From Bacteroidales bacterium (GTDB lineage: Bacteria; Bacteroidota; Bacteroidia; Bacteroidales; UBA3663), in contig JAZQOK010000003.1 in NCBI GenBank assembly GCA_045627865.1, positions 4,316 through 68,315 of the forward strand: 64,000 nt of DNA. Reading direction: 5' to 3'. The notes beneath the pieces were generated by a model that made no database searches, had not been told where the DNA came from, and saw only the letters and a program-made list of their open reading frames with translations. Made by a program: the position numbers and the translations under genes. Below are positions 198-47,104 of the stretch, piece after piece. Within the stretch, counting starts at the first letter, position 1. Every line of letters starts with the position of its first letter.

Positions 198-2957
198 TTA
201 TATTCCGCAGATGCGTTTGATTTCGGCCAGTTTGTTGAGAGCCTCCATTGGTGTCATGTTGTTCGGATCAAGTCCCTTGATTTCATCGCGTATCTGGCTG
301 AGAACTGGATCATCGAGTTCGAAGATCTGGAACTGATAACCGGCAGGAGCTCCCGAGACTGAAATCTTTTCGACCGGCACATCCAGTTTGCCTGTATGTG
401 GACCTGACTCTCCCACTTGTGGGGAGTTCGATGGGGCTTCCAGTTGTTTCAGTACTTCGTCGGCACGTTTCACCACTTCTGGGTTCATACCTGCCAGCTT
501 GGCAACGTGGATACCGAAACTGTGTTCGCTGCCGCCCGGTTTCAGTTTGCGGAGGAAGAGTACCTTGCCATTCTCCTCGCGTACGCTCACGTTGAAGTTC
601 TTGATGCGGGAGAAGGACTTCTCCATTTCGTTCAATTCGTGATAATGGGTTGCAAACAGCATCTTCGGATGACCCTCTGCTCGTTCATGGACGTATTCTA
701 CGATACTCCATGCGATCGAAATGCCATCGTAGGTACTCGTACCTCGTCCCAGCTCGTCAAAGAGCACCAGCGAGCGCGGAGATAGGTTATTCAGGATGTT
801 CGACGCTTCAGTCATCTCGACCATGAAAGTGGATTCACCGAGCGAGATATTATCCGATGCTCCCACGCGGGTGAAGATCTTATCTACAATGCCGATATGA
901 GCGGCATCGGCAGGTACGAAACAGCCGATGTGTGCCATCAGGGTGATCAAGGCTGTCTGGCGCAACAAAGCTGACTTACCAGCCATGTTCGGACCGGTAA
1001 TCATCATGATCTGAGGAGACCCCTCCCCATCCCTCCCGAGGGAGGGGGATTGAGAGATTGAAACTGTCTTTCCATCTCCTCCCCTCGGGGAGGTTGGGAG
1101 GGGGTTGCTGTTAATCAATACATCGTTCGGAACATATTCTTCGCCGACAGGCATCTGACGTTCAATGACAGGGTGACGTCCCTGACGGATGTCGATTACG
1201 AGGCTGTCATCTACATCCGGGCGGACATAATGATAGCGGGCTGCTATGTGACTGAAAGAGAGCAGACAGTCGAGACGAGCCATGAGCTGTGCATCGATCT
1301 GGATGATTGGAATATATTCCTCCAAGGCCTTGAGCAGATCCTGATAAAGCTGGCTTTCGAGCGACAGAATACGGTCTTCGGCCGTGAGGATCTTCTCTTC
1401 ATATTCCTTCAGTTCCTGAGTGATGTAGCGTTCTGCACCAACCAGTGTCTGTTTGCGGATCCATTCGGCAGGAACCTTCTCCTTGTGGGTGTTGCGGACC
1501 TCGATGTAATAACCGAATACGCTATTAAAGGCCACTTTGAGCGAAGGAATATCATATTCCTCGGAAAGTCTTTGCTGCAGAGCCAGCAGATAATCCTTGC
1601 CAGAGTAGGCAATCTGTCGCAATTCATCGAGTTCGGCATTGACATTGGCTCGGATCACATTGCCCTTGCCGATCATGACTGGTGGCTCTGGCTCTATTTC
1701 ACGATAGATACGTTCTGCGATACGTTCGCAGGTATTGATCTGGTCGCTGATGTTCTGTAACTGTGGCAGATCAGCCTGCTGACAAGCCTGTTTGATCTCC
1801 TTGAGTGATTCAAGAGCGATGCGGAGCTGAACTATTTCGCGTGGGGAAACACGTCCTACGGCAACTTTAGCCACAATACGTTCCATGTCTCCGAGGCGTT
1901 TCAGTCCTTCACTGATGGTGTCAGCTAGCTCTGGGTCGCGGAAGAAGTATTCTACCACATTCAGACGTTCACGGATGCTCTCAGCGTGAATCAGTGGAAA
2001 GAGTATCCAGCGATGCATCAAACGTCCACCCATAGGGGTAACGGTATCGTCGATGACATTCAGCAGGGAACGTCCACCTTCGTTCATCGGATAAACCAGT
2101 TCCAGACTTCGTACCGTGAACTTATCGAGACGCATATAGGCTTCATTGTCGATGCGACGAATCGAAGTGATATGGCCAATATTCTTGTGCTGGGTAGCAT
2201 CCAGATAGCGGAGGATGGCACCTGCTGAAGATATAGCCAGATACATTTCGTCGATACCAAAGCCCTTCAGGTTCTGGGTATGGAACATGTCCATCAATCC
2301 ACGGCGGGCATTGTCGTAGCTGAAGTAATAGTCATCCAGTTCGTAGCAATATGGATTGGTGGTGAAATGCTCCTGGTAGGTAGGTTTCATACCCTTCAGG
2401 AAGAGCATCTCTTTCGGTGCATAATTGCCAATCAGTTTGTCGATATAGTCGTAGGTTCCTTCGGCGGCCAGGAACTCACCGGTTGAGAGGTCGAGTAGGG
2501 CCAGACCGACCATCTGCGAGGCCTTGGAACCTTTTGAACCCTCTACCTTTGTAATACTACCAAAGGTTACAGCAGCCAGGAAGTTGTTCTCGCGGGCATT
2601 CAGTACATTGTCACCGGTAGCCAAACCTGGGGTGATCAGTTCGGTCACTCCACGCTTAACCAGTTTCTTGGTCAATTTCGGGTCCTCAAGTTGTTCGCAG
2701 ATTGCCACACGTTTGCCTGCACGTACCAGTTTAGGCAAATAGGTGTCCAGTGCATGGTACGGGAAACCTGCCAATGGACTGCCTGCTCTGGCTGTCAATG
2801 TGATTCCTAATATATCGTGTGCGGTTTGTGCATCCTCGCAGAAGGTTTCGTAAAAATCACCTACACGATACAGGATCACTGCATCGTGGTACTTCTGCTT
2901 CAGTTCGAAATATTGCTTTAATAGTGGCGTGTCTTTCGGATCCGACGCTTTTGTCAT
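198..2957 (-). CDS. mutS: DNA mismatch repair protein MutS
   Basis: GDFYE mismatch motif, Walker [34 protein letters not shown]; contains repeat-derived segments. Confidence 0.98.
408..437. repeat. Degenerate C/G palindromic element within the mutS C-terminal linker (encodes [10 protein letters not shown])
   Basis: ctctcccac-tt-gtggggag hairpin followed by ttcgatggggc tail; same layout as the other copies. Confidence 0.55.
1018..1104. repeat. Inverted pair of C/G palindromic elements in frame within mutS
   Basis: gacccctccccat-ccctccc-ga-gggaggg (1018-1046) and cctcccc-tc-ggggagg-ttgggaggggg (1078-1104); encodes [11 protein letters not shown]...[11 protein letters not shown] just before the Walker A strand. 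Confidence 0.85.
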
Positions 2958-2980
2958 TTTTATATATTTTTATAGGCAGT

Positions 2981-3021
2981 CACGCAAAGGTCGCAGAGGA
3001 CACAAAGGTGGCCGCGCAAAG
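2981..3021. repeat. Degenerate nonamer tandem repeat (CRCARAGGN)
   Basis: cgcaaaggt cgcagagga cacaaaggt ... cgcaaag between the TrmH gene and mutS. Confidence 0.55.
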
Positions 3022-3037
3022 TATTATTAATAATGAT

Positions 3038-3592
3038 TTAGAAACAGCCTTTTTGCGAGAACGATTTAAAGAATTCCCAAATAACCAAACCGGTGGTGAC
3101 ACTGACGTTCAATGAGTGTTTGGTGCCGAACTGTGGGATTTCGAGGCAACCATCGCACATATCAACTACGGTTTGCTGGACGCCTTTCACTTCGTTGCCC
3201 ATTACTACGGCATAACCGAGAGGCTGTGATTCGGTGTTCCATGGCTCAAATGTATTCAGCATGGTACTGCCTTGGCATTGTTCGATAGCCATCACCTTAT
3301 ATCCTTTGGATTGGAGTTCGCGTACAGCTTCGTGTGTATCCTCGAAATAACGCCAATCGACAGAATCTTCAGCGCCGAGAGCGGTCTTGTGAATCTCCAT
3401 GGATGGAGGAGTAGCCGAGATACCGCACAAATAGATGCTCTCCACACGGAAAGCATCGCTTGTACGGAATACTGAACCGATGTTATTCAGAGAACGTATA
3501 TTATCCAGTACAATGATCAAAGGCATCTTCTCAGCCTGCTTGAATTCCTCTGTTGAGATTCTGCCCATCTCGAGCATTGTCAGTTTCTTCAT
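3038..3592 (-). CDS. TrmH/SpoU-family RNA 2'-O-methyltransferase
   Basis: LDNIRSLNNIGSVFRT, VMGNEVKGV, IPQFGTKHSLNVS SPOUT motifs; start placed at MKKLTM (3592), not the ORF-track start. Confidence 0.9.
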   Translation of the reverse strand: MKKLTMLEMGRISTEEFKQAEKMPLIIVLDNIRSLNNIGSVFRTSDAFRVESIYLCGISATPPSMEIHKTALGAEDSVDWRYFEDTHEAVRELQSKGYKVMAIEQCQGSTMLNTFEPWNTESQPLGYAVVMGNEVKGVQQTVVDMCDGCLEIPQFGTKHSLNVSVTTGLVIWEFFKSFSQKGCF

Positions 3593-3593
3593 A

Positions 3594-3974
3594 CTATTGT
3601 TGATTAAGTCGGTTGATGACAGATTGTAAATCAAGGGTAAGTTGGGAGCGTAGCTGATCGAGAGATTCCATGCGTCGCTCATCGCGGATTCGATCCACGA
3701 TCTTGAGCGACAGCATCTGTCCGTAAAGGTCCCCGTTGAATCCAGCCAAATGTGCCTCGACCGAAAGTTCGTGTCGGGAAGTATCGACCGTTGGACGGTA
3801 ACCAACATTGACCATGGCCGGAAATTGCTGACCATCGGGCAATGTAGCCCACGCAGCGTAAACCCCTGCAGCAGGTAATTGCCCCAATAACTGATCAATG
3901 CATAAGTTCGCAGTGGGATATCCTAATTGACGTCCCAACTGCTTGCCGTGCACAATTACTCCGGAGATATCCAT
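3594..3974 (-). CDS. Stand-alone riboflavin kinase (RibF C-terminal domain only)
   Basis: GVIVHGKQLGRQLGYPTAN, GVYA, NVGYRPT, EAH, RIRDERR; 126 aa with no FAD-synthetase domain. Confidence 0.88.
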   Translation of the reverse strand: MDISGVIVHGKQLGRQLGYPTANLCIDQLLGQLPAAGVYAAWATLPDGQQFPAMVNVGYRPTVDTSRHELSVEAHLAGFNGDLYGQMLSLKIVDRIRDERRMESLDQLRSQLTLDLQSVINRLNQQ

Positions 3975-3995
3975 AGCTAAAACGCTAATACTGAC

Positions 3996-4027
3996 TTTAA
4001 CCCCTTAAACTTTTAACCTATTAATCT
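3996..4027. repeat. Degenerate octamer tandem repeat
   Basis: tttaaccc cttaaact tttaacct attaatct between ribH and the kinase gene. Confidence 0.4.
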
Positions 4028-4028
4028 C

Positions 4029-4490
4029 TTAAAGGCCCTTCATCAAGTTGACCATCTCGATTGCAGAGATCATGGCGTCAGCGCCCTTGTTGCCGGCTTT
4101 GGTACCTGCACGCTCGATAGCCTGTTCAATGCTGTCGGTAGTAAGGATGCCATTCAGGACAGGACGGCCTGATTTCATGCTGGCAGTAGCAATGCCTTTA
4201 GCCGACTCGTTAGCTACCATGTCGAAGTGTGGAGTAGCACCACGGATAACTGCACCAAGACATACAACAGCATCATATTTGCCAGATTCTGCCATCTGCT
4301 GAGCTACCAATGGAATCTCGAATGCGCCTGGAACGTAAGCGAGAGTGAGGTTTTCAGTCTTGCCACCATGGCGAACGAAACAATCCTCGGCACCACCAAT
4401 GAGGCGGTCAACGATAAAGTCATTAAAACGAGAAGCAACGATACCGATCTTCTGACCTTCGGCGGTCAGGTTTCCTTCAATTTTCTTCAT
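4029..4490 (-). CDS. ribH: 6,7-dimethyl-8-ribityllumazine synthase
   Basis: [38 protein letters not shown]. Confidence 0.97.
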
Positions 4491-4506
4491 ATTTGTTAAT
4501 TATTTA

Positions 4507-5733
4507 TTACTTGAGATTTTGGTTCTTAATATCTTTCAGATGTAGCAAGTGACCCATTTTGGCGTACTTGGTATACATATAGAACTCATCCTTCTCGTTG
4601 CAGGTCATCTCGATAGGTTCGCGATCTACAATCTTGATTCCAAAGCCACCCAAGCCATCGATCTTGGCAGGATTGTTGGTCATCAGAATCAGGTCGTGAA
4701 TACCAAGATCTGCAAGGATTGAAGCACCTGTGCCATACTCGCGCAGGTCAGCAGCAAAGCCGAGAGCCAGGTTTGCTTCGACAGTATCCATGCCCTGATC
4801 CTGCAATGCATATGCACGCAACTTGTTGATCAAGCCGATGCCACGGCCCTCCTGACGCAGATAGAGCAGTACACCACGGCCACGCTGTTCAATACGACGC
4901 AAAGCCTCTGCTAGCTGTTCGCCACAGTCGCAACGCAAGCTGCCAAAGGCATCGCCAGTCAGACATTCCGAGTGAACACGGCAGAGAACCGGCTCAGGGG
5001 TGGTAACATCGCCCTTGACCAAAGCCACATGATGTTCACCAGTTACTTCGTTGACATAACCATAGGCCTTGAAGGTGCCATATTTGGTAGGAAGTTCGGC
5101 AACAGATACCTGTTTAACCAGTTTCTCGGTGTTGCGGCGGTAAGCGACGAGGTCTGCAATCGTGATCTTGACAAGGTTATGTTTCTCGGCAAAATCGAGC
5201 AATTCGGTGGTACGCATCATAGTACCATCCTCACGCATGATTTCGCAACAAAGTCCACACTCCTTCAGTCCTGCCAGACGGCACATGTCGACAGTTGCTT
5301 CGGTGTGACCTGTGCGAACCAATACGCCACCTTCGCGTGCTTGCAATGGGAACATGTGGCCAGGACGTCGAAAATCGTCAGGTTTAATGCCATCGGCTAC
5401 GGTAGCACGGGCTGTGATGCCTCGTTCAACGGCCGAAATACCGGTCGAGGTCGATATGTGATCAATACTGATTGTGAAAGCTGTGAGGTGATTATCCCCA
5501 TTGTTGGCGCACATTTGTGGCAGATTCAACTGCTCACAGATCTGACGACTCATAGGCATGCAGATAAGTCCTTTTGCCTCCGATGCCATGAGGTTGACAT
5601 TTTCCGTTGTGGCAAATTCGGCCGCACAGATCAGGTCGCCTTCGTTCTCGCGATCTGGATCATCGACAACCAGAATACACTGGCCAGCCTTGATGGCAGC
5701 AATTGCCTCTTCGATAGTGTTAAATTTGTTCAT
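4507..5733 (-). CDS. ribBA: Bifunctional DHBP synthase / GTP cyclohydrolase II
   Basis: [38 protein letters not shown]. Confidence 0.97.
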
Positions 5734-5735
5734 AT

Positions 5736-6377
5736 TTAAATAAATCCGTTTTGTGCTAATTTCTGCATGATGTCAGGCTTGCTGGAGGGAGTTACTCCCA
5801 ACAGTTTCTCGACATATTTGGCAAGGATATCGTTTTCAAGATTGACCAGATCGCCCACACGGGCCTGATGCAAGGTTGTAGCTGCTTGCGTATGAGGAAT
5901 AAGCGAGACCGCAAATGAGCGATCGTCAACGCGGGCTACAGTCAGCGAGACACCCTGAATTGTAATGCTGCCTTTCTCGATGATGTATCGCAACAAGCAA
6001 CTTTCACATTCGATTGTGAGCCAAAGGGCTGTATCGTCTTGTCGGCGGTCTGAGATTCGGCCTGTTCCATCGATATGGCCCGAAACGATATGTCCACCGA
6101 GACGGGTTTGCAGGGACAAGGCTCGTTCGAGGTTGACTGGACTGCCTGCTTTCAGTTCTCCAAGGGCTGTGCGTTGTACGGTTTCAGGCATCACGTCGGC
6201 CGTGAAGCCATGGCCTGTCAGACTTGTGACAGTTAGGCAGACGCCATTGGTCGCAATACTGTCACCCACTTGGGTACCCTCCATGACCAATTTGGCATCT
6301 ACTTCGAGCGTGAAGCTCTTGGCGCCTCGATGCAAGGATTTAACGTGTCCTACTTCTTCAACTATACCTGTAAACAT
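5736..6377 (-). CDS. ribE: Riboflavin synthase (alpha chain)
   Basis: Begins with the conserved MFTGIV (start 6377), [28 protein letters not shown]. Confidence 0.96.
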
Positions 6378-6382
6378 AAAAG

Positions 6383-6423
6383 ACTCTCTCTGCCCTTGGG
6401 GCACCTCCCCCGTGATGGGGAGA
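6383..6423. repeat. Intergenic double-hairpin palindromic element related to the in-frame copies
   Basis: tgccc-tt-ggggca followed by ctcccc-cgtgat-ggggag between ribD and ribE. Confidence 0.6.
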
Positions 6424-6432
6424 ATTATTTAG

Positions 6433-7539: not shown

Positions 7540-7546
7540 ATTAAAC

Positions 7547-7658
7547 CGTTCTTCCATCCAGACTTTACTGTCGGTACCGGAGTTGCACCGGTTCATGGCC
7601 AGAAGGCCTAGCGGACTGTACCGCCGATCGGGAATTACACCCTGCCCTGAAGAGTTAT
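7547..7658 (-). ncRNA. FMN riboswitch (RFN element)
   Basis: Minus strand reads tcttcagggcagggtgtaattcccgatcggcggtacagtccgc...ccggtgcaactccggtaccgacagtaaagtctggatggaagaa, the RFN consensus, directly upstream of ribD. Confidence 0.95.
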
Positions 7659-7664
7659 ACGTTG

Positions 7665-7672
7665 CAAAGATA
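7665..7672 (-). promoter_or_regulatory. Bacteroidetes -7 promoter box for the rib operon
   Basis: TATCTTTG immediately upstream of the riboswitch. Confidence 0.7.
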
Positions 7673-7850: not shown

Positions 7851-7858
7851 TAACTTTG
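7851..7858 (+). promoter_or_regulatory. Bacteroidetes -7 promoter box for gpmI
   Basis: TAACTTTG about 55 bp upstream of the ATG. Confidence 0.65.
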
Positions 7859-21335: not shown

Positions 21336-21938
21336 ACCTCCTTCGGCAGCATCAATGTATTGTCTCAATGATTTTTATTTAATGACCTCAGAGAAGAGGA
21401 GAAGAAAAGAAGATTGTTTAGCGACAAATGCTTCTACTTTTCAAATCTTCTTTGAGGATAATAATTCTATGGCTCTCAGAGTGTAAAAAAGTGTAATGGA
21501 GAATTATAGGAATCACTTCATTTCACTCCCTTAACTCTGCGAGAGATAGTAAACTTTCTTCTACTTATGTTGACTTACTGCATACTACTTGCATTGCATT
21601 CCATGGCCGGAACTTTTGGTTTTGATGCTATTACGAATATGCCGACATTTTCGCTCGAAATAGGTCGGATGGCATATTCTCAACTTGAGGCTAAAGGCTA
21701 AAAGTAAAGGTCGCTACAACAGGTCACTACCCAGGCAAAATGAGGCTCTGCAGTAGCCTCTCAGGTGGAGTCCGCTCTCCGGAAAAAGGTATTAAAAATC
21801 CTTTTTGACCTTAATGACCAATGACCACGGACAAGTGTTGAAATGAATAAAGTGAGGGGAAAAAGAGGACATTCTTGGTAAAAGGTATTGCGGGAGTCAA
21901 GAATAAACCGTATCTTTGCACCACTAAAAAAGAATCCT

Positions 21939-22574
21939 ATGAGCATTTTCGATAAAATCAAATCCTTCTTTGCGAGCGATGAACAGCTGATGGCTGCTAA
22001 TGGTCATGCTGCCTATCGTGTTGATCAGGCAACATTTGTGGTTCCTGTAGAGATTACAGAAGAGGCTGTCTATGCCGCTTTGGTAGAATATGGACGACAG
22101 GCAGGGTATATTGATCCACAACGTGCTGTGCAGCGGAATAGTGATGCGCTGATGGCTTCGGTCAAGAATCAGGTCATCAAGATGCACGAGGAGATACTGA
22201 AGGCCTACGAGAAACAGAACTTGTCGCCCGATGAGAAGCTGCTGAACCGTCTGACCATCGAAAATATGTTTTTCCTCTCGATGGGTACTGCCATCCTGGC
22301 CAAGGTCAAGAAGACCAACCTCATTGCCCAGGGATTCTTCGGTAAACTGCTCAAGAAGTCTGGCCCTGAGTTCTTCTATCGCGAGGTTTTGGCGATGGCT
22401 GGGCATAAGTATGGCGACGAAACGAGCGAAGCCATCCACACCCATGTACAACGTGCTGCCTACCTGCTACTGTCCAGCTTCGACAACCAGTCGGATCGCC
22501 GCTCGTTGGCCATCGTATGCGCCAAGGCCATGTACATGTATGGTTTGGCAGTCACTCTCCGTGTGAAAGAGTAG
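21939..22574 (+). CDS. Hypothetical protein
   Basis: Clean ORF preceded by the -7 box TATCTTTG (21911-21918); no recognised motif. Confidence 0.7.
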   Translation: MSIFDKIKSFFASDEQLMAANGHAAYRVDQATFVVPVEITEEAVYAALVEYGRQAGYIDPQRAVQRNSDALMASVKNQVIKMHEEILKAYEKQNLSPDEKLLNRLTIENMFFLSMGTAILAKVKKTNLIAQGFFGKLLKKSGPEFFYREVLAMAGHKYGDETSEAIHTHVQRAAYLLLSSFDNQSDRRSLAIVCAKAMYMYGLAVTLRVKE

Positions 22575-22581: not shown

Positions 22582-23991
22582 CTATTCCTTGAAGTCATCG
22601 ACTTCGACAAGGTGATACTTTTCGCGTTCGTCGGGAGAGGTCAGTTTCAGGGTGACATTTCTCAAGGTCAACGAACGGATGTGTTCGGCTGATAAACCCC
22701 AAGCCGGCTGGATGCCGTGAGCTGAGGGTTCTGGGTAGTGAGGATCATGTTTCTCGAAGAAACGGTTTCTTCCCTTTTGCGTCCGTACATCTTCGAGGGT
22801 TATTCCTCCACGGAATTCAACCATGATGTTTTCCATCCAGATGCTATCGATGGGATTCTCCTTCTGCCCGCTGAGCAGAATGGCATAGCGGCTGTCGCAG
22901 TCTTTGGCCGTGATGTTGGTCAGGCGGATATTCCGGAACTTCGAGGCAGGAGTTCCCTCTGGGGCTCTCATTCGTCGGCCAAGAACCATGTAGATAGGAG
23001 AGTTGCAGATGTCCTCCATCAGGATATTGTCCACGAAAACATTCTCCAGTATAGCACCATCCACCGTTTCGAAGGCCAATCCTCGGCAATGTGTCAGTCG
23101 GCAGTTGCGGATCGTGATGTCGCGGAAGGCGGAGTTACTCTCTGTACCAAGTTTGATTCGACCAGTAGGACCATCCTGATCCGGTGCAAGCAGTTGGTTG
23201 GTCGTCTTTGTACCATCGAAAAATGTACCGTTATCAAATCCCGATACCTCGCAATCTTCAATCAAAACATCGGCGGTAGGTTTCATGAATCCCAAGGCGT
23301 ATGAGCACTTCAGCACGATGGCATCGTCGTTGAAGGTATTGACTTTGCAGTTTCTGACCACGACATGTTCGCAGCAGTCGATGTCAAAGCCGTCACGGTT
23401 GGTATCGACCATGACTCCCTCGATGAGAAGGCTGTCAACGCCTGTGAGGAGCAGGGCGAAGTGTCCGCATTGCGACAAGGAAATATCTCGGATGGTGATG
23501 TTCCGGCAATTCTTCATGGCAATGGCTTTATTGGCCGCTTTCTGATCCTTCCGGTGTCCACGGGTCAGGACATCTGTACCATCGATCAGGCCTTTGCCCT
23601 CGATGGTGACATGGGTCAGATCCTCGCCCCATAGGAGCGAGTTGTGCCAGTGGCTATGACCGAAATCCTGGTAGGTCTTTCCGTCGAAAGGTTCTGCCTC
23701 ATCGAAGCTGTTGATGCTGTCGGGTGCTGCTGCCTGGATGATGGCACCCTCCTCGAGCCGCAATGTGATATGGCTCTTCAAATGGATGGAGTGGCACAGG
23801 TATTTCCCTTTGGGAATCAGCACAACGCCCTCTTTGGCTTGGCTGGCTGCTTCGATCGCTGCATTGATGGCTGTGGTTTCGATATGGACGCCATCTCCTT
23901 TAGCACCGTAATCCAGTACGTTGTAGTTTTGTGCAAATCCGCTGATGTATGCGGCTGTCAACAGTATGAGTAATTCCAGTTTCCTTTTCAT
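22582..23991 (-). CDS. GH28 glycoside hydrolase (galacturonidase/rhamnogalacturonase type)
   Basis: NVLDYGAKGDG, TNRDGFD, DDAIVLK, GRIKLGTES; signal peptide. Confidence 0.92.
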   Translation of the reverse strand: MKRKLELLILLTAAYISGFAQNYNVLDYGAKGDGVHIETTAINAAIEAASQAKEGVVLIPKGKYLCHSIHLKSHITLRLEEGAIIQAAAPDSINSFDEAEPFDGKTYQDFGHSHWHNSLLWGEDLTHVTIEGKGLIDGTDVLTRGHRKDQKAANKAIAMKNCRNITIRDISLSQCGHFALLLTGVDSLLIEGVMVDTNRDGFDIDCCEHVVVRNCKVNTFNDDAIVLKCSYALGFMKPTADVLIEDCEVSGFDNGTFFDGTKTTNQLLAPDQDGPTGRIKLGTESNSAFRDITIRNCRLTHCRGLAFETVDGAILENVFVDNILMEDICNSPIYMVLGRRMRAPEGTPASKFRNIRLTNITAKDCDSRYAILLSGQKENPIDSIWMENIMVEFRGGITLEDVRTQKGRNRFFEKHDPHYPEPSAHGIQPAWGLSAEHIRSLTLRNVTLKLTSPDEREKYHLVEVDDFKE

Positions 23992-24824
23992 AGTTTCCTT
24001 GTTTGCGTGAATGCTTTGCCGAGATTAGCGATGATATCGGAGGGCAGGAGTGACTCCATGCTTTGGCCTTCATCGAGGGCAATGTCGGCAGCAAGGGCGT
24101 GAATCCAGACACCGAGAGTGGCGGCTTCAGTAGCTGTGTAATGTTGCGCCAATAGGGCAAGGATGATGCCCGTCAGGACATCGCCACTACCGCCTACCGC
24201 CATGCCTGCGTTGCCGTGCTGCGTATTGACGAAGACTTCGCCCGAAGGAGTATAGATGTGGGTATGATGACCTTTGAGGACAACGACCAAAGACCCACCC
24301 CGTCCCTCCCTCGTAGGGAGGGTGTTTAATGCTGATGTCAGTCGTTTCCATTCTCCTACATGAGGGGTGAGGATGGATCCTTGGGGAATCAGATCGATCC
24401 AATCGGGATGCAGAGCCAGGATGTTAAGGGCATCGGCATCGAGCACCATGGGTTTCCCCCATTGCTGCAGCAGCTGATGAAGTGCCTCTTGTGTCTCTGT
24501 GGCTTGACCCAACCCAGGGCCAATTCCAATGACTTCGGTGTCTTGGGGTACAATGATATGGGTATGATGCTGAGGATCTTTGTCGCAATCACATTTAGCC
24601 TCGGGAATGCCTAACTGCAGAATATCATATCCGCATCTGGGTACACGGACGGTGAGCAGTCCTACACCACTACGCATACAGGCACGCGCAGATAGAAGTG
24701 CTGCTCCCATCATGCCTTGGCTGCCAGCTACGAGCAGTGCTCGTCCATAATCACCTTTGTGGCTTTCTGCTTTGCGTAAGCGGTGGATGCTATGTATCAG
24801 TTCGGGGGTGATGATTGTTTCCAT
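23988..24824 (-). CDS. nnrD: ADP-dependent NAD(P)H-hydrate dehydratase
   Basis: HKGDYG, GIGPGLG, LDADAL, LTPHVGE, GGSGDVLTG. Confidence 0.93.
   Translation of the reverse strand: METIITPELIHSIHRLRKAESHKGDYGRALLVAGSQGMMGAALLSARACMRSGVGLLTVRVPRCGYDILQLGIPEAKCDCDKDPQHHTHIIVPQDTEVIGIGPGLGQATETQEALHQLLQQWGKPMVLDADALNILALHPDWIDLIPQGSILTPHVGEWKRLTSALNTLPTREGRGGSLVVVLKGHHTHIYTPSGEVFVNTQHGNAGMAVGGSGDVLTGIILALLAQHYTATEAATLGVWIHALAADIALDEGQSMESLLPSDIIANLGKAFTQTRKL
24292..24324. repeat. C/G palindromic element in frame within nnrD (TLPTREGRGGS)
   Basis: gacccaccccgt-ccctccct-cgt-agggaggg, perfect 8-bp stem. Confidence 0.85.
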
Positions 24825-29959: not shown

Positions 29960-30565
29960 TCATCGCAAAGATACTATTTTTTCGCGTATTGTCAAAATAT
30001 CTGTATTGCTTTCATCTGTTTCAAACAAAAGACGTTCCAGAGGAATAAGTCTTGCCACCTCGGGATTGAATTTTTCGCCTAAAGAGATCTGAAAGCCTGC
30101 TTTGAGCAGCTGCTGAGCTAATTGCGGCCCTTTGCGATAGCCGTGGATGATTGCCCCACCCCATTCCTCTCCCGTCGGGAGTGGGTAATATTCTTTGACA
30201 TAAGCCATCATTTCTGCCCAATATCCCACACAATGGATGATGACGGGCAGATGCATTTCTTGCGCCACCTGAAGTGCTGTCTTAAAAGCAGTTAGCTGAA
30301 GCTCTAACGGCACACCACATTGGTTGTCCAATCCGCATTCGCCAATGGCCAGCAGATTGGGATTGCCTGCCAGACGTTGGGCGACCTTAAGAAACTCCTT
30401 TTCCTTTATCCCTTTTCCTTTATCCTTTTCTATCTGCCACGGATGCAGTTCAAGGCTGAACGGGGTTTCGCAACCCGATAAGGCAACATCGGCAGGAAGG
30501 GACAATAGTGCCTCTTGGTGCCCTGGATGATGGGTATGGATGTCGAGCAGGTTTTGTATCTTCAT
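29960..30565 (-). CDS. tatD: TatD-family hydrolase
   Basis: DIHTH, LHPW, IGECGLD, IIHC, IHG, ETD. Confidence 0.88.
   Translation of the reverse strand: MKIQNLLDIHTHHPGHQEALLSLPADVALSGCETPFSLELHPWQIEKDKGKGIKEKEFLKVAQRLAGNPNLLAIGECGLDNQCGVPLELQLTAFKTALQVAQEMHLPVIIHCVGYWAEMMAYVKEYYPLPTGEEWGGAIIHGYRKGPQLAQQLLKAGFQISLGEKFNPEVARLIPLERLLFETDESNTDILTIREKIVSLR
30153..30185. repeat. C/G palindromic element in frame within tatD (PLPTGEEWGG)
   Basis: gccccaccccat-tcct-ctccc-gtc-gggag-tggg. Confidence 0.75.
30396..30430. repeat. In-frame heptamer repeat CCTTTWT in tatD (EKDKGKGIKEKE)
   Basis: tcctttt cctttat ccctttt cctttat ccttttc; same unit as 40081-40108. Confidence 0.7.
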
Positions 30566-30708
30566 GCGGTGCAAAGGTAGGGATTTTCCGTGATTTCGCC
30601 AAATTATTCATCTTGAATGTATATTTTTTCGACCCTTTATTTGGAAAATAAAGCAGAAATGATTATCTTTGCGCCCATAACTGTAAAACACTCCTTATAC
30701 CGTCAATC

Positions 30709-38282: not shown

Positions 38283-38310
38283 CGATCGTTCATTAATACT
38301 TTTTATATCT

Positions 38311-39975: not shown

Positions 39976-40008
39976 TCATATTTGGTTATAAAATAGTAAA
40001 ATTCAATA

Positions 40009-40048
40009 TGCAAAGATACAACATAACCATTTTTGTTGTATCTTTGCA
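40009..40048. promoter_or_regulatory. Perfect 15-bp inverted repeat with a -7 box in each arm
   Basis: tgcaaagatacaaca-N10-tgttgtatctttgca. Confidence 0.7.
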
Positions 40049-40080
40049 CTCAAGTTGATAAAAGGTGATTTTTCATTTTT

Positions 40081-40108
40081 CCTTTATCCTTTATCCTTTA
40101 TCCTTTAA
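40081..40108. repeat. Heptamer tandem repeat CCTTTAT
   Basis: cctttat x3 + cctttaa immediately before the regulator ATG. Confidence 0.8.
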
Positions 40109-40111
40109 ACT

Positions 40112-41080: not shown

Positions 41081-41084
41081 TATT

Positions 41085-43142
41085 ATGAGGAATGTACTCA
41101 AGATAACAGCTTTTGCATTGTTGGCAATCATCATTTTGGTGATGGTGGTGGCTACTTTGGTCGAAAAGTCGGCAGGTAGCGCCATGTTCATCTATGGCTC
41201 TTGGTGGTTCGCCTCTTTGTGGGGCGTACTGGCCGTTGTCTCGTTGATGTATATTGGCTTCCAGAAGCTCCAGAAACGTCCGGTTGTTTTCATGCTACAC
41301 CTTTCGTTTGCCGTAATCCTGATGGGAGCACTCATCACTCATGTGTGGGGCAAACAGGGTATCCTTCATTTGCGATTGGACGAGGAAACACATATTTTCG
41401 CGCTCGAAAATGGCTATGGTTCGAAGTTCCCTTTTGAGGTATGCCTGAAGGAATTCTCGGTAGTCAATTATCCAGGTACAGAAACAGCTATGGATTATGT
41501 TTCGGTCGTCGAGGTCAAGGAAAAAGAGACACCCACGGCAGTACTGACTATTTCGATGAACAAGATAGGGCAGTATGGCGGTTACCGATTCTATCAATCC
41601 TCCTATGATTGGGATCTGCAAGGTTCGGTCTTTTCGGTTGCCTACGATCCGTGGGGAATCGGTGTGACTTATGTCGGTTACGCCCTGCTTTTCCTCTCAA
41701 TGGTGCTCTTGCTGGTTCTTCCGGATGAAGGCTTCCGTCGGGCATTGAAACGATTGTCGGTTGTAGCGTTGTTGGCTCTGATGGGCATGGATAGCTATGC
41801 TGCACCAGCTCAACCCAAGGTGTTGCCCGATAGTATTGCCCAGCAGTTCGGACATCTTTATGCCTACTACAATGGTCGTATTTGCCCGTTGCAGACAGTT
41901 GCTTACGATTATACTACCAAACTGTATGGCAAATCTTCGTATCAGGGATTTTCGGCCGAACAGGTCTTTACGGGTTGGCTCTTTTACCCCACCAGTTGGG
42001 TCGATCAGCCACGCAAGGCAACCAAAGGTCCTCGCTATCAGGAGGAGCAGGATGCCATTGTGCAGATGATGCTCTCGGGGCAGTTTATGCATATTTTCCC
42101 CTATCGGGATAGCCTTCAGAACATCACATGGTATTGTCAGGGTGACAATCTACCGATGACCATGGAAGAGAATACCTGGTTCTTTGTCAAGAAGTCGATG
42201 GATTATGTGGGCGAACTGGTCGTGATGCAACGATATGATTCGCTCGGATATACGTTGCAGAAGATTCGTAAGTTCCAGCAGGATCAGGCAGGCGAAGTTC
42301 TCCCTTCCGACCTGCATTTCAAGGCAGAGCAGACTTACAATTCCATGAACCTTGTGCGACCTTTGGCCATGTTCTTTGCAACATTGGGTATTCTGCTGTT
42401 TGTCTTCTATGTGCGTTTCTGGCTCAAGAACCGGAATAACCCTTTGTGGTTGACCATTCCTGTGAATGTGCTATTGGTACTAGTCATTGCCTATCAAACA
42501 GTTTTTCTGGCACTCCGGTGGTATGTATCAGGGCATTTGCCACTCTCCAATGGATACGAAACGATGCAGTTCCTAGCGTGGGTAGTCATGATCCTGACTT
42601 TGATCATACAACGCCGTTTTGTGCTGATGATTCCTTTTGGTTTCCTGCTGATCGGGTTGACTTTGCTCGTTTCGATGATGGGACAATCCAATCCGCAGAT
42701 TACTCCGCTCATGCCGGTTCTTTCATCTCCGTTGCTTTCCCTTCACGTATGCATCATTATGTTAGCTTATGCCTTGCTTTCCTTTATTTTCTTCAACGGA
42801 TTGACATCGTTGTTCCTGAAGGATGAAAGTAAGATTATAGCCTTGTACGATGTCTCGCGTGTCATGCTCTATCCAGCCTTGTTCTGTCTGACGGCAGGTA
42901 TCTTTATAGGTGCCATTTGGGCCAATGTCAGTTGGGGCAGATACTGGGGATGGGATCCCAAGGAGGTTTGGGCCTTGATCACGATGCTTGTCTATAGTTT
43001 TGCTTTCCATGCCCAAAGTTTGCCTCTCTTCCAGAAGCCGAAGTTCTTCCACCTCTACATGGTTCTTGCTTTCCTTTCGGTTCTCATGACCTATTTCGGT
43101 GTGAATTTTCTATTAGGAGGCATGCATAGCTATGCCTCCTAA
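41085..43142 (+). CDS. ccsA: Cytochrome c biogenesis system II fused CcsB/CcsA protein
   Basis: Multiple TM helices, ResB-like SMNK...YRFYQSSY, WAN.SWGRYWGWDPKE (WWD domain), GMHSY. Confidence 0.9.
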   Translation: MRNVLKITAFALLAIIILVMVVATLVEKSAGSAMFIYGSWWFASLWGVLAVVSLMYIGFQKLQKRPVVFMLHLSFAVILMGALITHVWGKQGILHLRLDEETHIFALENGYGSKFPFEVCLKEFSVVNYPGTETAMDYVSVVEVKEKETPTAVLTISMNKIGQYGGYRFYQSSYDWDLQGSVFSVAYDPWGIGVTYVGYALLFLSMVLLLVLPDEGFRRALKRLSVVALLALMGMDSYAAPAQPKVLPDSIAQQFGHLYAYYNGRICPLQTVAYDYTTKLYGKSSYQGFSAEQVFTGWLFYPTSWVDQPRKATKGPRYQEEQDAIVQMMLSGQFMHIFPYRDSLQNITWYCQGDNLPMTMEENTWFFVKKSMDYVGELVVMQRYDSLGYTLQKIRKFQQDQAGEVLPSDLHFKAEQTYNSMNLVRPLAMFFATLGILLFVFYVRFWLKNRNNPLWLTIPVNVLLVLVIAYQTVFLALRWYVSGHLPLSNGYETMQFLAWVVMILTLIIQRRFVLMIPFGFLLIGLTLLVSMMGQSNPQITPLMPVLSSPLLSLHVCIIMLAYALLSFIFFNGLTSLFLKDESKIIALYDVSRVMLYPALFCLTAGIFIGAIWANVSWGRYWGWDPKEVWALITMLVYSFAFHAQSLPLFQKPKFFHLYMVLAFLSVLMTYFGVNFLLGGMHSYAS

Positions 43143-43217
43143 TAAAAATATAGGATATATTTGGATAATTGATAAAAAATACCTATCTTTGCAGCCGCAA
43201 ACCGATAATTTGTACGT

Positions 43218-44366
43218 ATGAAGACTCAAAAATACATTTGGGAAGATTTGGGCACCACAATCGAGTTGTCACTTTTTGTTCCCGATACAACCAATCAAAC
43301 ACAGGAATCTGTCTGTGAGGAGTGCCATGCAATGCTTCACATTGAACCGCGAGGAGAACTCTTCGAGGGACAGTTGCGTCGTGCCTTGTTGGCTGAGCAG
43401 CGGATGTTAGAGGAACTGCACGGGTTCCAAACTGTCTTCAAACGCTATTTTTTGAGTGATGCGACCAATCAGGCCCCTTTGTTGCCTATTGACAATACTA
43501 TTTCGGCTATTCAGCAGCCTCCATTGGATGGCTCTAAACTGGCAGTTTGGTTCTATCTGCAGAAGGGATCCAAACTTCAGAATAAGGAGGGAATGACTGT
43601 CGTTGAACATAATGGATATCAGCATCTTTACAAGTGGGGACAGGTTGTTCCTGAGGGTGATAGCTATCAGCAGACCAAGACACTTCTGGAGCAATATGAA
43701 AGTAGTTTGAAATCTTTCGATGCAACTCTTGAAGCAAATTGTGTCCGAACCTGGTTCTTTGTCCGTGATGTCGATACGCAATATGCAGGAATGGTTAAGG
43801 CACGTAAGGAGAATTTTGTTGAACAGGGTTTGACCGAAAAGACACATTACATTGCTTCGACCGGTATCGGAGGTTTACCTGCTGATACCAAGGCCATTGT
43901 TCAACTGGGTACCTATGCCTTAACAGGATTTCTGCCTATGCAGCTTCAATATCTGTATGCGAAGACACATTTGAATCCGACTTATGAATATGGTGTTACC
44001 TTCGAACGTGGTACTGCGGTACATTTCGGCGATCGTGACGAGATTTACATCTCTGGAACTGCCTCAATCAATAATCGTGGCGAGGTAATGTATGTTGGCG
44101 ATATCGTGAAACAGACGGAACGAATGTGGGAGAATGTTGATGCTTTGCTCGATGAGGGGAATGCGACCTTCGATGATGTGGCACAGTTGATTGTATATCT
44201 CCGTGATATGGGTGATTATCCGGTGGTTAAAAAGATGTTTGACGAGCGTTTCCCGAACGTGCCTCGTGTCTTTACATTGGCTCCTGTTTGCCGTCCAACT
44301 TGGTTGATTGAGATGGAATGCATCGCTATTCCTCACCGAAATAATGACAACTATCGACCATTATAG
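43218..44366 (+). CDS. Rid (YjgF/RidA-fold) multi-domain hydrolase
   Basis: NCVRTWFFVRDVD, YIASTGI, YGVTFERG, ISGTASI, VCRPTWLIEME; -7 box at 43184-43191. Confidence 0.78.
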   Translation: MKTQKYIWEDLGTTIELSLFVPDTTNQTQESVCEECHAMLHIEPRGELFEGQLRRALLAEQRMLEELHGFQTVFKRYFLSDATNQAPLLPIDNTISAIQQPPLDGSKLAVWFYLQKGSKLQNKEGMTVVEHNGYQHLYKWGQVVPEGDSYQQTKTLLEQYESSLKSFDATLEANCVRTWFFVRDVDTQYAGMVKARKENFVEQGLTEKTHYIASTGIGGLPADTKAIVQLGTYALTGFLPMQLQYLYAKTHLNPTYEYGVTFERGTAVHFGDRDEIYISGTASINNRGEVMYVGDIVKQTERMWENVDALLDEGNATFDDVAQLIVYLRDMGDYPVVKKMFDERFPNVPRVFTLAPVCRPTWLIEMECIAIPHRNNDNYRPL

Positions 44367-44432
44367 TTCTTTTTAGTAAGAATTTTCATTGAAAATTTGG
44401 TTGTTTGCACAAAATAAGTTAATTTTGTGCCC

Positions 44433-45488
44433 ATGAAAAGCATTTTTCCATTCTTGTGTGGCCTACTGACCTCAATCGTTTTATTCTCCTGCTCGGAGAC
44501 TAAGTTGCGCGTTGCTGAAGGTGCTCCATATACATTGACTGGCACGCTGTGGCAGGATTCTACAACTATCGATTCTTTGGTTACATTGATTATTGATCGT
44601 CATGAGTTTTCTTTCTCTGCTGAGGGTGACTCGATGCCGGTCTACGAGGAGTTGTCGCTACCTGTCGTTGAGGGACATTTTTCATACCAGGGCAAGGCTC
44701 CTCTCGATGTGGATGAACTTTACCTCTACGATCAGCATGGACATATGGCCCGCTTGTATGGCTCTTCGGGTGCTAATATACAGGTTCAGGTACTGAAAAA
44801 TGGAACGGTTCAGCAATCTGCTCCTGATTCTTCAGATCTGATGCGTACTTTGATACTTCGTGATTCTATTCCTTTGCTGAATGATTCTTTGAAAGTGCGT
44901 CGTATCCTGGGTGGTCTGCCAGAGTCAGCCAAACCAGAATGGCTGATGTCTTCGATCAACACGATGCTTGACCAGATGTCAAATAAAATGGATAAATCGA
45001 CACGTTTGCCACGTGTTGATCTGCAACTGACTGATACTATCTATTCGCTTCTGGCTAATCGCTCGGAATATCTGTTGCTCTATTTTTGGTCGGAGTCAGT
45101 TCCTTCGTCCGTAGATTCGCTTCGGTTATTTACCTCCATTGCTCAAGATTATGGACTTTATTCTTTTGCAGACTCGTTTGTGAGTAACAAATCAAAGTCT
45201 CGTCGAGAAAAAGCACGTCGTATAGAACTCATTTCTGTTTGTATGTATGCATCTGATAGTGCTTCGTGGAAGGCTACTATTAAAAACCTTCCGGGCAAAC
45301 ATACTATCTTGCAAGGAGCTTATGCGCATCCGCTGGCATCAGTTTGTAGAATCCATCAATTGCCGAGTTTGATATTGGTAGACCGTTTTGGAAACTATCA
45401 GTCACGTGATGTTTGGGGCACGGAACTCTATAAGTGGCTTGATCGGGCTCCATTCAATAGCGATATCAACAAAAAGCTAAGCAAATAA
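44433..45488 (+). CDS. Lipoprotein with DUF4369-like N-terminus and thioredoxin-like C-terminus lacking CXXC
   Basis: Lipobox LFSC; LLLYFWSESVPS at the usual FWAxWC site; LPSLILVDRFG. Confidence 0.55.
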   Translation: MKSIFPFLCGLLTSIVLFSCSETKLRVAEGAPYTLTGTLWQDSTTIDSLVTLIIDRHEFSFSAEGDSMPVYEELSLPVVEGHFSYQGKAPLDVDELYLYDQHGHMARLYGSSGANIQVQVLKNGTVQQSAPDSSDLMRTLILRDSIPLLNDSLKVRRILGGLPESAKPEWLMSSINTMLDQMSNKMDKSTRLPRVDLQLTDTIYSLLANRSEYLLLYFWSESVPSSVDSLRLFTSIAQDYGLYSFADSFVSNKSKSRREKARRIELISVCMYASDSASWKATIKNLPGKHTILQGAYAHPLASVCRIHQLPSLILVDRFGNYQSRDVWGTELYKWLDRAPFNSDINKKLSK

Positions 45489-45520
45489 CTCAACAACTAA
45501 TAACTATCAACTATTAACTT
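45486..45520. repeat. Heptamer tandem repeat (NNAACTA)
   Basis: taactca acaacta ataacta tcaacta ttaactt; same family as 16481-16508. Confidence 0.7.
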
Positions 45521-45532
45521 TCATTCAATACC

Positions 45533-47104
45533 ATGGTTGTTCGTACTATTTCTGCTGCTCTGCTGGGGATTGACGCTACACCGGTCTATTGTGAGACCGC
45601 TACGGCTCCTGGTTGCCGTATTCTCTTGATCGGATTGCCTGATGCGGCTGTCAAGGAGAGCCGTGACCGCATGGAGAGTGCTATGCGAGAATCTGGCCTT
45701 CGTCCGCCAAGAAAACAAGTTACCATCAATCTCGCTCCTGCTGATGTCCGCAAGGAGGGTGCTCTCTACGATGTCCCGATTGCAGTGGCTGTTTTGGCTG
45801 CTGGAGAACTTATTCCTGCCAACAAACTGGAGAAATATATGATTGTTGGAGAGCTGTCACTTGATGGTAAGATCAAGCCTGTAAGTGGTTGTCTTCCGTT
45901 TGCAATTCTTGCTCGGAAAATGCAGTTACAGGGCATTATCGTGCCTCGTGAAAATGCGCAAGAGGCTGCTGTAGTTAATAATTTGGATGTATTGGCTGCA
46001 GATACTTTGTCTGAAGTGGTTGATTTCCTTTGTGATCGTGGCGTGCTTGATCAGGTTTCGGTCAATACACGAGAAATGTTTGCCAAGGCAGAACGTATTT
46101 TCCCAGCTGACTTTGCCGATGTGAAAGGACAGACCCTCGTTAAACGAGCATTTGCTATTGCTGCAGCTGGTGGTCATAATCTGATTATGGTTGGCCCTCC
46201 TGGAGCGGGCAAAAGCATGATGGCTAAGTGTTTGCCAAGCATTCTTCCTCCACTTTCTCTTAGTGAGGCTTTGGAAACAACCAAGATTCATAGTGTGGCA
46301 GGCATACGAGCAGAATCGGGTTTGATAACACAACGTCCGTTTAGAGCTCCTCATCACACGATTTCGAGTGTCGCCTTGATTGGCGGCGGCTCGAACCCAA
46401 TGCCAGGTGAAATAAGCCTTGCGCACAACGGGGTTCTCTATCTCGATGAACTTTTGGAGTTCAATAGAGCAGTCCTTGAAGTGCTTCGCCAACCCTTGGA
46501 AGACCGTAAAATTACCATTGCACGAGCCAAGAATACAGTTACCTATCCATCGTCGATGATGCTGGTAGCCTCCATGAATCCCTGCCCATGTGGTTACTAT
46601 AATCATCCGACTCGAGAGTGCACCTGTACAGAAACTCAAGTTCGAAAGTACTTGGGTCGCATCAGTGGTCCTTTAATGGATCGTATCGACCTTCAGATCG
46701 AAATTCACCCTCTCTCTTTCGATGAACTCTCTCGTACTCATGTAGCTGAATCCTCTGCCTCTATCCGTGAGCGAGTACTCAAGGCTCGTCAGATACAAAC
46801 CAAGCGATTTGAGGCGTACAACAATAATCTCCCGCCCTATGAGGGAGGGATGGGGAGGGTCTCTTGTAACGCACAGATGACTCCTGCTTTGATGCGAGAG
46901 TTCTGTGCCCTTGATGATCGTTCTCTCAAGATGCTACAGAGTGCGATGTCAAAACTTGATCTCTCAGCCCGCGCTTATGATCGCATCCTCCGTGTTGCCC
47001 GCACTATCGCCGACTATGAAGGCTGTGAGAATATTATTTCTACCCATATCGCCGAAGCTATCTCGTATCGTAACCTCGACCGTAACAACTGGGGACAAGG
47101 ATAA
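45533..47104 (+). CDS. comM: YifB/ComM Mg-chelatase-like AAA+ ATPase
   Basis: GLPDAAVKES, NLAPADVRKEG, GPPGAGKS, PFRAPHH, GEISLAHNG, NPCPCG, DRID, RVARTIAD. Confidence 0.93.
   Translation: MVVRTISAALLGIDATPVYCETATAPGCRILLIGLPDAAVKESRDRMESAMRESGLRPPRKQVTINLAPADVRKEGALYDVPIAVAVLAAGELIPANKLEKYMIVGELSLDGKIKPVSGCLPFAILARKMQLQGIIVPRENAQEAAVVNNLDVLAADTLSEVVDFLCDRGVLDQVSVNTREMFAKAERIFPADFADVKGQTLVKRAFAIAAAGGHNLIMVGPPGAGKSMMAKCLPSILPPLSLSEALETTKIHSVAGIRAESGLITQRPFRAPHHTISSVALIGGGSNPMPGEISLAHNGVLYLDELLEFNRAVLEVLRQPLEDRKITIARAKNTVTYPSSMMLVASMNPCPCGYYNHPTRECTCTETQVRKYLGRISGPLMDRIDLQIEIHPLSFDELSRTHVAESSASIRERVLKARQIQTKRFEAYNNNLPPYEGGMGRVSCNAQMTPALMREFCALDDRSLKMLQSAMSKLDLSARAYDRILRVARTIADYEGCENIISTHIAEAISYRNLDRNNWGQG
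46829..46861. repeat. C/G palindromic element in frame within comM (LPPYEGGMGRV)
   Basis: cccgccct-atg-agggaggg-atggggagggtc; tail is nearly the reverse complement of mutS 1018-1030. Confidence 0.8.

Follow-up and report, generated by a model that had tools for sequence, protein, structure and literature searches.

Palindromic units inside housekeeping genes of a gut Bacteroidales bacterium and their physical link to DUF559 nuclease cassettes

Introduction

How does one short palindrome come to lie, in frame, inside several housekeeping genes of the same bacterium, and what could have put it there? The question is raised by a 64,000-nucleotide stretch of DNA from a Bacteroidales bacterium (assembly GCA_045627865.1, contig JAZQOK010000003.1; C3:4316-68315 of the genome analyzed here, G000), called the window below. 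G000 is a 3.17-Mb draft in 39 contigs, with 47.5% G+C, and is rated 87% complete. The original prediction, made from the letters of the window, placed a CTCCC/GGGAG hairpin unit in four housekeeping genes (mutS, nnrD, tatD, and comM) and read it as a non-autonomous mobile element.

We find that the unit recurs throughout G000 and that inverted copies of it flank all six genes for DUF559, a nuclease domain, in this genome. This link is new here. The best explanation as a whole, to which we give a probability of about 0.6, is that a small mobile DUF559 cassette gave rise to the palindromes, each a copy of its terminal inverted repeat.

Results

A family of hairpin units with outward-facing ends

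Five copies of the hairpin CTCCC-N3-8-GGGAG lie in the window, where chance predicts 0.28; 100 shuffles that preserve dinucleotides never produced as many. Read on the C-rich strand, a unit of about 30 nt consists of (A)GACCC, a C-rich tail resembling the 5′ arm of the stem, a spacer of 2 to 4 nt, and a C/G hairpin of 5 to 9 bp. We took a census of the whole G000 genome with blastn-short, seeded with 128 distinct unit variants (E ≤ 0.05), and used the reversed genome as the control. The census gave 234 strand-specific matches, which amount to 197 loci once strands are merged and to an average density of one unit per 16 kb. The reversed genome returned 11 weak matches; at 36 bits or more it returned none, versus 218 strand-specific matches in the real genome. 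The genome scan that the original prediction proposed thus came out in its favor. The census is an underestimate, because subfamilies ending in GCCCC and GCCTC turned up afterwards. A single nhmmer profile of 115 aligned units had proved too weak for a genome census (26 matches at E ≤ 0.01) and was replaced by the multi-seed search.

The unit variants have no sharp divisions: at 80% identity, single-linkage clustering fused 109 of the 128 into one continuum, and the subfamily labels used below (F1, F2, F6, and so on) were therefore made by hand from stem and loop. Anchoring on [GA]ACC[CT] placed the end tag GACC(C/T) in 179 of the 197 units of the census, and 170 of these 179 have G as its first base; other subfamilies have GCCCC or GCCTC, not GACCC. 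Just outside the unit, A occupies position −1 in 124 of the 179, positions −2 and −3 are A-rich, and nothing is conserved past −4.

Units are often paired, and the pairs have a strict polarity. Among neighbors no more than 200 bp apart, the GACCC ends face outward in 39 pairs and inward in 1, with the two tandem orientations at 4 and 8; spacers range from 27 to 200 bp. The resulting inverted doublets measure 90 to 175 bp, have inverted ends of 30 to 36 nt, and contain no open reading frame (ORF). At the gathering threshold, Rfam returned only a flavin mononucleotide (FMN) riboswitch and tRNA, with no family at unit sites. The G-rich strand of units carries four runs of at least three G (GGGAGGG-N-GGGGTGGG; for example, the reverse complement of window 24292-24322), and the tail repeats the stem arm. 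Such a sequence could form a G-quadruplex or pair in an alternative, slipped register.

Inverted units flank every DUF559 gene of G000

The six DUF559 (PF04480) genes of G000 score 101.7 to 112.3 bits against a Pfam curated cut-off of 20.6. Census units lie 33 to 144 nt away on both sides of four of them; at the other two, the flanks contain further subfamilies that were outside the census. Given the average density of units (one in 16 kb), flanking at six of six genes cannot be chance. The original prediction had suggested looking beside the copies for a DUF559/Vsr-like nuclease or a transposase of the RAYT (repetitive extragenic palindrome–associated tyrosine transposase) type. The first expectation holds without exception, but RAYT-like genes are unflanked.

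Complete cassettes are about 0.5 kb long with a single gene, as in the 0.54-kb cassette at C7:21720-22261, whose DUF559 gene spans 21894-22199; another DUF559 gene lies at C10:13579-13896. For six of the about eight unit subfamilies in G000, there is a cassette whose end type matches. Wider outward-facing pairs, 200 to 4000 bp apart, number six in the genome; three enclose DUF559 genes as ~0.5-kb elements with a common small ORF, and none of the six encloses a transposase. A longer autonomous element with a transposase was rejected on these grounds. Among known structures, the DUF559 protein matches Protein Data Bank (PDB) entry 3HRL, an “endonuclease-like protein” (7e-20), and more weakly 3R3P (0.0065), named “mobile intron protein” by its depositors, which we take to be the homing endonuclease I-Bth0305I.

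The association extends beyond G000. Of 29 DUF559 loci that could be tested in the genus, 24 are bordered by inverted matches with scores of 30 or more, each with its own variant. Among loci from other families of the order, 19 of 29 score higher than every one of 20 shuffled controls. A given end type of cassette recurs at the same locus in different species; like RAYT genes, the nuclease genes are stable residents. One locus shows an exchange of whole cassettes. At C11:103446-103941 of G000, an aconitase-family gene has a cassette at its very 5′ end, and the ORF of this gene now begins within the cassette. In the close relative G003 (contig C1, L260), the aligned site holds a cassette of a different nuclease lineage and end type. 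The flanks of the two are 96 to 99% identical, and identity ends exactly at AGACCC and GGGTCT. G007 and G041 have a G003-type cassette at this aconitase-adjacent locus, as judged by flank similarity only.

A deleted cassette in mutS

The window contains five census units and two decayed copies (Table 1). The prediction of a unit in four housekeeping genes therefore stands for the mutS pair, nnrD, and comM, which the census recovered; the tatD copy and a second mutS copy are decayed and not significant by profile. Every intragenic copy in the window preserves the reading frame and encodes the peptide originally listed for it.

Table 1. Positions of the repeat units, their host genes, and the RAYT-like genes (window coordinates unless a contig or locus is named).
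Feature	Position	Strand	Description	Basis
mutS host gene	198..2957	-	919 aa, intact	Pfam MutS domains I-V
Inverted doublet in mutS	1017..1105 (left unit 1017-1049 +; right unit 1077-1105 -)	.		Census, ortholog alignments
Decayed solo unit, mutS C-terminal variable linker	403..437	-	GCCCC-ended subfamily; aa about 841-852	Hairpin pattern
Double-hairpin unit between ribD stop and ribE start	6386..6422	+	Subfamily F6	Census
nnrD host gene (NAD(P)H-hydrate dehydratase)	23988..24824	-	278 aa	Pfam Carb_kinase 2.1e-51
Solo unit in nnrD	24292..24322	+	Subfamily F1; peptide TLPTREGRGGS	Census, 61.9 bits
tatD-family host gene	29960..30574	-	204-aa ORF	Pfam TatD_DNase 1.9e-25, partial (profile positions 61-203 of 253)
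Probable decayed F1-type unit in tatD	30153..30185	+	Peptide PLPTGEEWGG; variable-length loop	Hairpin pattern
comM host gene	45533..47104	+	523 aa	Pfam Mg_chelatase, ChlI, Mg_chelatase_C
Solo unit in comM	46829..46861	-	One stem mismatch; peptide LPPYEGGMGRV	Census
RAYT-like family	L001:254-1507; L002:1300-2589; C31:131369-132547; C34:14473-15318; C12:77789-78673			

In mutS, the only MutS1-type gene found in G000 (one further paralog has 28% identity), the doublet is a clean insertion with a net gain of 84 nt, or 28 amino acids. It lies directly before the strand leading into Walker A, as follows from the match to Escherichia coli MutS, which is interrupted between chain residues 600 and 608 (query residues 612 and 649). 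The insert is absent from all 39 displayed rows of a Bacteroidales MutS alignment. In a separate comparison of 30 rows (18 genus members and 12 other families), it occurs only in G000 and G003, as identical DNA in proteins that are 97% identical. Three other genus members (G016, G004, and G017) have a solo unit of another subfamily at exactly the same position, and five more have unrelated short or low-complexity inserts; the site is empty in five genus members and in all 12 outgroup families. Furthermore, the doublet is colinear with both ends of the C7 cassette (30/32 positions on the left and 35/39 on the right), so that it is an internally deleted cassette.

DNA contigs from three other studies bridge the left junction of the mutS element, which is therefore not an artefact of this assembly; under a 31-letter rule, no public DNA contig bridged the right junction. 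Over window 1026-1117, the summed contig depth rises 20- to 100-fold in metagenome/metatranscriptome runs X1, X3, X5, and X20, and in these samples many other contigs bear the same repeat. The contigs of the one metatranscriptome run, X20, match the repeat alone with loose ends elsewhere and are uninformative on mutS mRNA. We presume that the inserts are translated.

The pre-Walker-A loop is a hotspot of length change in the genus. It contains low-complexity repeats (SNPSNPSN..., GLNGSNGSNG...) or other short inserts in G013 (L120), G014 (L122), and G007 (L121).

Solo units in comM, nnrD, and elsewhere in the window

The comM insertion is exact, with 33 nt (11 amino acids) facing a gap of exactly 33 nt in the nine genus orthologs shown. 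A unit was present in 3 of 30 rows, and the copies in G003 and G005 are decayed. In nnrD, the unit supplies 10 amino acids in place of 6 in the orthologs, a net gain of 4, and only in G000 and G003 (2 of 29 rows). The mutS, comM, and nnrD insertions are thus confined to the closest members of the genus, with empty sites elsewhere in it. This supports the predicted role of a non-autonomous element, similar to repetitive extragenic palindromes (REPs) or Rickettsia palindromic elements, that adds lineage-specific loops. In this genus, nnrD is a stand-alone ORF; most other families of the order have matching frames of ~500 amino acids (L157-L166), probably NnrE-NnrD fusions.

The two decayed copies lie below the census threshold, with nhmmer E values that are not significant even within the window alone (17 in the mutS linker and 12 in tatD). 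They are credible because of the comparison with G003 only. In the mutS linker, the G003 sequence is a well-preserved GCCCC-subfamily unit, GCCCCCTCC-AA-CTCCCCC-AA-GGGGGAG, and about nine extra amino acids are common to G000 and G003 relative to other genus members. The original prediction had taken this copy for the same unit; a hairpin unit it is, but of a different subfamily. The tatD site is unit-like in G000 and G003 only, where G003 reads GGGAGAGGGTTGGGGTGGGAC, near the family tail. Several other genus orthologs have unrelated segments of equal length in this loop, and a clean insertion cannot be shown for that reason; the original prediction had itself named such segments as grounds for refutation, and as a clean insertion this copy fails that test. 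The proposed ortholog alignments therefore gave clean insertions for the mutS pair and comM and a short replacement for nnrD, but not a clean insertion for tatD.

The double hairpin reported between ribD and ribE is indeed a census unit and lies outside any gene; 9 nt separate it from the real ribE start downstream. Its type also flanks DUF559 genes in G007 and G003.

Intragenic copies across the genome

We counted a unit as internal if it lay within an ORF of at least 150 amino acids with at least 30 on either side. By this definition, 48 of the 197 units are internal to 35 intact long ORFs, 30 of them supported by Pfam (27 of 32 outside the window and 3 of 3 in it). Random placement of 197 windows put 132 to 162 inside genes, with a mean of 150. 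Units are therefore depleted about threefold from gene interiors, and most copies are intergenic. The window is atypical in having four of its five census units inside genes; the original impression that most copies lie in coding sequence was right for the window but not for the genome.

Two units each were found in genes for MetH, PolA, aconitase, SufB/D, QueA, and MnmE. Further hosts include DbpA, TrpE, RmlD, ArgC, Tex, HsdR, an M16 peptidase, GDP-mannose dehydratase, and UDP-glucose dehydrogenase. Relative to Pfam domain envelopes, internal units fall in inter-domain linkers or within stretched envelopes. They occur in every frame of the G-rich strand but in two frames only of the C-rich one, whose third frame usually has TAG in the loop. 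The commonest variant, F1, has no stop codons in five of six frames. The M16 peptidase gene (L002:42-1214; C12:64766-66025 of G000) carries an in-frame unit with an adjacent partial unit (LPPFTGGQGEGLGGLGEGPEG) and lies directly upstream of a RAYT-like gene.

Units and cassettes in other Bacteroidales

For comparison between genomes, we used a strict tail pattern, GGGAGG-N2-5-GGG-N1-4-GGGTC, which has 88 matches in G000 and none in the reversed control. The pattern occurs in 27 of 39 genus members, seven of which have 76, 66, 55, 49, 36, 30, and 22 matches, and is absent from twelve. It occurs in 34 of 301 genomes of the order, mostly with one to three matches; the highest counts outside the genus are 18, 12, 7, and 5. 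DUF559 is present in 15 of the 39 genus members, including all 10 with at least 10 pattern matches and none of the 12 without a match. Thus, DUF559 presence tracks unit abundance in the genus better than RAYT-like genes do, a pattern that is suggestive and does not amount to a test.

DUF559 itself is widespread, with matches in 118 of the 301 sampled Bacteroidales genomes, and in some of them the cassette lies within a gene without closing its reading frame. A DUF559 cassette occupies the same site in leucyl-tRNA synthetase (LeuRS), in one open frame, in three families (G228, G195, and G203; L278, L284, and L281). The valyl- (ValRS; G186, L274) and isoleucyl-tRNA synthetases (IleRS; G242, L271) likewise have DUF559 and unit-encoded flanks in one open frame, and two DNA methyltransferases from other families of the order (L279 and L276) contain a nested in-frame cassette. 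The genus of G000 has its own examples, in an epimerase-family protein (G013, L246) and at the N-terminus of a PIF1-like helicase (G016, L238). Pfam places host families on both sides of the insert. In nine nested or fused proteins, Pfam at E ≤ 1e-5 detected no intein (Hint) domain and only host families plus DUF559/MTES_1575. The LeuRS, ValRS, and IleRS genes of G000 are empty at these sites. Among the roughly 150 DUF559 matches listed for the order, ~30 have open frames of more than 400 amino acids; such nesting is therefore probably not rare.

Discussion

A proposed model of a nuclease cassette and its derivatives

We propose the following model. A complete cassette of ~0.5 kb would have an end on either side, the two inverted relative to each other and each made up of (A)GACCC or GCCCC, a C-rich tail similar to the stem arm, and a C/G hairpin of 5 to 9 bp. 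Its only gene, between the ends, would encode a DUF559 nuclease (Vsr-like, PD-(D/E)XK superfamily). Internally deleted cassettes would persist as inverted doublets of 90 to 175 bp, such as the one in mutS, and half-elements as solo units, such as those in nnrD, comM, tatD, and the mutS linker. The nuclease may recognize and cut the ends, mobilizing cassettes, doublets, and perhaps solo units in trans, and joining of the DNA to a new site would then fall to host repair or replication. A unit that lands in frame in a surface loop or an inter-domain linker would leave the protein working, because units are G+C-rich and those of F1 are stop-free in five of six frames. Selection would purge the other insertions, and the outcome of this filter would be extra P/G-rich loops.

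Several observations weigh against this explanation. Subfamily F2/F6, with at least 23 units, has no cassette in G000, which is 87% complete. DUF559 cassettes are mostly vertically inherited and are not seen jumping; end type clusters on the nuclease tree (12 changes versus 22.3 in shuffles), and this is not independent evidence, because the cassettes are mostly vertical. Up to two pattern matches come from each cassette itself, which makes the co-occurrence of DUF559 with units partly circular; kinship confounds it as well. G017 has nine pattern matches without DUF559, and G095, outside the genus, has 12. Transposition is suggested by sequence comparison, and we know of no PD-(D/E)XK nuclease that acts alone as a transposase. 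No target-site duplication was readable in a 14-kb alignment of G000 and G003, because the two are only 85 to 90% identical in DNA and too diverged; a single 60-bp insert found in G000 only has no clear duplication either.

A broader proposal is more tentative, and we put it at slightly worse than even odds. The cassettes may represent an undescribed class of prokaryotic mobile element, the sole gene of which encodes a Vsr-like DUF559 nuclease between hairpin-plus-tail inverted repeats. This gene would play a RAYT-like role, staying at a fixed locus while spreading gene-less doublets and solo units. Whole cassettes would be carried, unspliced and in frame, in the LeuRS, ValRS, and IleRS of other Bacteroidales families, and derivatives would add loops to dozens of housekeeping proteins, including one beside the MutS ATPase site.

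Alternative explanations

The first alternative reverses the order of events. Units would be moved otherwise, or by replication slippage or recombination, and DUF559 would be a homing-type selfish gene that settled secondarily in existing doublets. The relationship of DUF559 to the mobile-intron homing endonuclease of PDB 3R3P fits this account, as does the stability of cassettes at their loci across species, and the use of one LeuRS site in three families looks like homing. Parts of PMC2677866 describe Vsr-like homing endonucleases that invade varied contexts, including replication and repair genes, introns, and inteins. Secondary settlement is nevertheless unlikely in our view. Every cassette has its own matched pair of ends, and six of the about eight G000 subfamilies have a cassette of the same type. 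Where two cassettes share a locus, what has been replaced is the entire cassette from end to end, and within the genus DUF559 is present in every genome with at least 10 pattern matches.

A second alternative takes DUF559 genes as bystanders and the units as REPs, or as their inverted doublets (REPINs), mobilized by RAYT-like HUH tyrosine transposases. G000 does have at least five RAYT-like paralogs of 350 to 430 amino acids that match Y1_Tnp / REP_Tyr_transpos weakly. The matching N-terminal part is split by a low-complexity insert, behind which comes a Y[VI]xxNP-like motif; the proteins also have an HUH motif (DHIH / DHFH) and a large, conserved extra domain at the C-terminus. The unit architecture, a conserved 5′ tag and hairpin with inverted doublets, resembles that of REPs and REPINs as set out in portions of PMC3116915 and PMC6006769. 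RAYT-like matches also occur in 7 of 10 genomes with at least 10 pattern matches, versus 3 of 12 with none. However, the scores fall below curated cut-offs; they are 35.6 and 38.3 bits, whereas the RAYT model requires 80. None of the five genes is flanked by units, the nearest unit being 616 bp to more than 10 kb off, although flanking is what defines a REPtron. The 5′ tag is GACCC and not GTAG or CGTC. Abundance does not follow these genes either. High-copy genomes G032 (76), G048 (66), and G016 (22) lack a RAYT-like match, and low-copy G046 (2 pattern matches) and G035 (1) have 11 and 7. We regard mobilization by RAYT-like enzymes as distinctly improbable.

Very little speaks for a third reading, in which the motif is a host-selected functional sequence (a terminator, a G-quadruplex, or a protein motif) that arose repeatedly and is not mobile. 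The intergenic position of most copies and the four G-runs of the G-rich strand would suit it. It does not account for presence/absence differences with sharp borders, for near-identical 30-nt units in unrelated genes and in five different frames, or for the strict outward-facing pair bias, and no Rfam family matched at the gathering threshold. Finally, the draft state of the assembly and the tendency of public contigs to break at the repeat might suggest that intragenic copies are metagenome assembly artefacts or marks of pseudogenes, an idea we can safely set aside given the same insertions in the independently assembled G003, the bridged left mutS junction, the intact host ORFs, whose Pfam domains are complete to either side of the inserts, and the single MutS1-type gene.

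Relation to known systems

Four known systems resemble parts of what we describe. To our knowledge, no gene-bearing full-length form exists for the Rickettsia palindromic elements, whereas here such a form carries the DUF559 nuclease. The Rickettsia elements also reside in another host phylum, with no apparent sequence relation (a direct sequence comparison aside), and the units here differ in form, as ~30-nt units or 90- to 175-bp doublets with a GACCC tail and a C/G hairpin. The likeness lies in short palindromic repeats that sit in frame in ORFs that probably still work, add short peptides, and are lineage-specific, as parts of PMC3733652 describe; the same parts report REPs inside genes, many of them for replication and repair.

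Like REPs and REPINs, the units combine a hairpin and a conserved 5′ tag, form inverted doublets, and reach hundreds of copies, mainly intergenic. They differ in the tag (GACCC/GCCCC here versus GTAG/CGTC) and in that a quarter of the copies are intragenic. The cassette also recalls the REPtron, which, in the sections of PMC6006769 that also treat RAYT classes in Bacteroidetes, pairs an enzyme gene, single-copy and passed on vertically, with flanking repeats of its own. Here, however, the flanked gene encodes a PD-(D/E)XK/Vsr-like nuclease (PF04480) and not an HUH Y1 transposase, and the RAYT-like genes are unflanked.

Vsr-like homing endonucleases (the I-Bth0305I family; “fractured genes”) share with DUF559 the fold class and the character of a selfish gene, with the weak match to 3R3P. 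Theirs lie in introns, lie between the halves of split inteins, or break the host gene. The nuclease here is bounded by hairpin inverted repeats, yields gene-less derivatives, and stays in frame in LeuRS, ValRS, and IleRS of other Bacteroidales with no Hint domain at E ≤ 1e-5. Bacterial miniature inverted-repeat transposable elements, such as Correia/NEMIS, RUP, and Nezha, are occasionally inserted in frame. They likewise have terminal inverted repeats, no coding capacity, and an origin by internal deletion of a longer element in the same genome. The parent here differs in having no recognizable DDE, serine, or tyrosine transposase and in encoding the DUF559 nuclease only. Our searches of the open-access literature, supplements aside, turned up no account of hairpin-ended DUF559 cassettes, and none of the papers found that mention DUF559 treats it as a mobile-element gene, as far as titles and the beginnings of abstracts indicate.

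These findings matter in several respects. They provide a second, independent, and much richer case of palindromic elements inside proteins, previously known from Rickettsia, and place it in free-living gut Bacteroidales. Empty and filled sites within one genus make the effects of an insert on protein function directly testable, for example in MutS. DUF559, a widespread domain of unknown function, gains a concrete, testable role. If the nuclease does mobilize the ends, this would be a repeat-spreading system without an HUH or DDE enzyme. For annotation, note that units lengthen ORFs, break assemblies, and make housekeeping proteins seem longer than their orthologs.

Other features of the window

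Two further observations concern annotation of the window. The FMN riboswitch (103 bits; window 7542-7658, − strand) falls inside the 441-amino acid “ribD” ORF as listed, and this ORF is therefore overcalled at its 5′ end, the real start lying downstream. A single ORF of 3986 amino acids occupies window 49596-61556 on the − strand.

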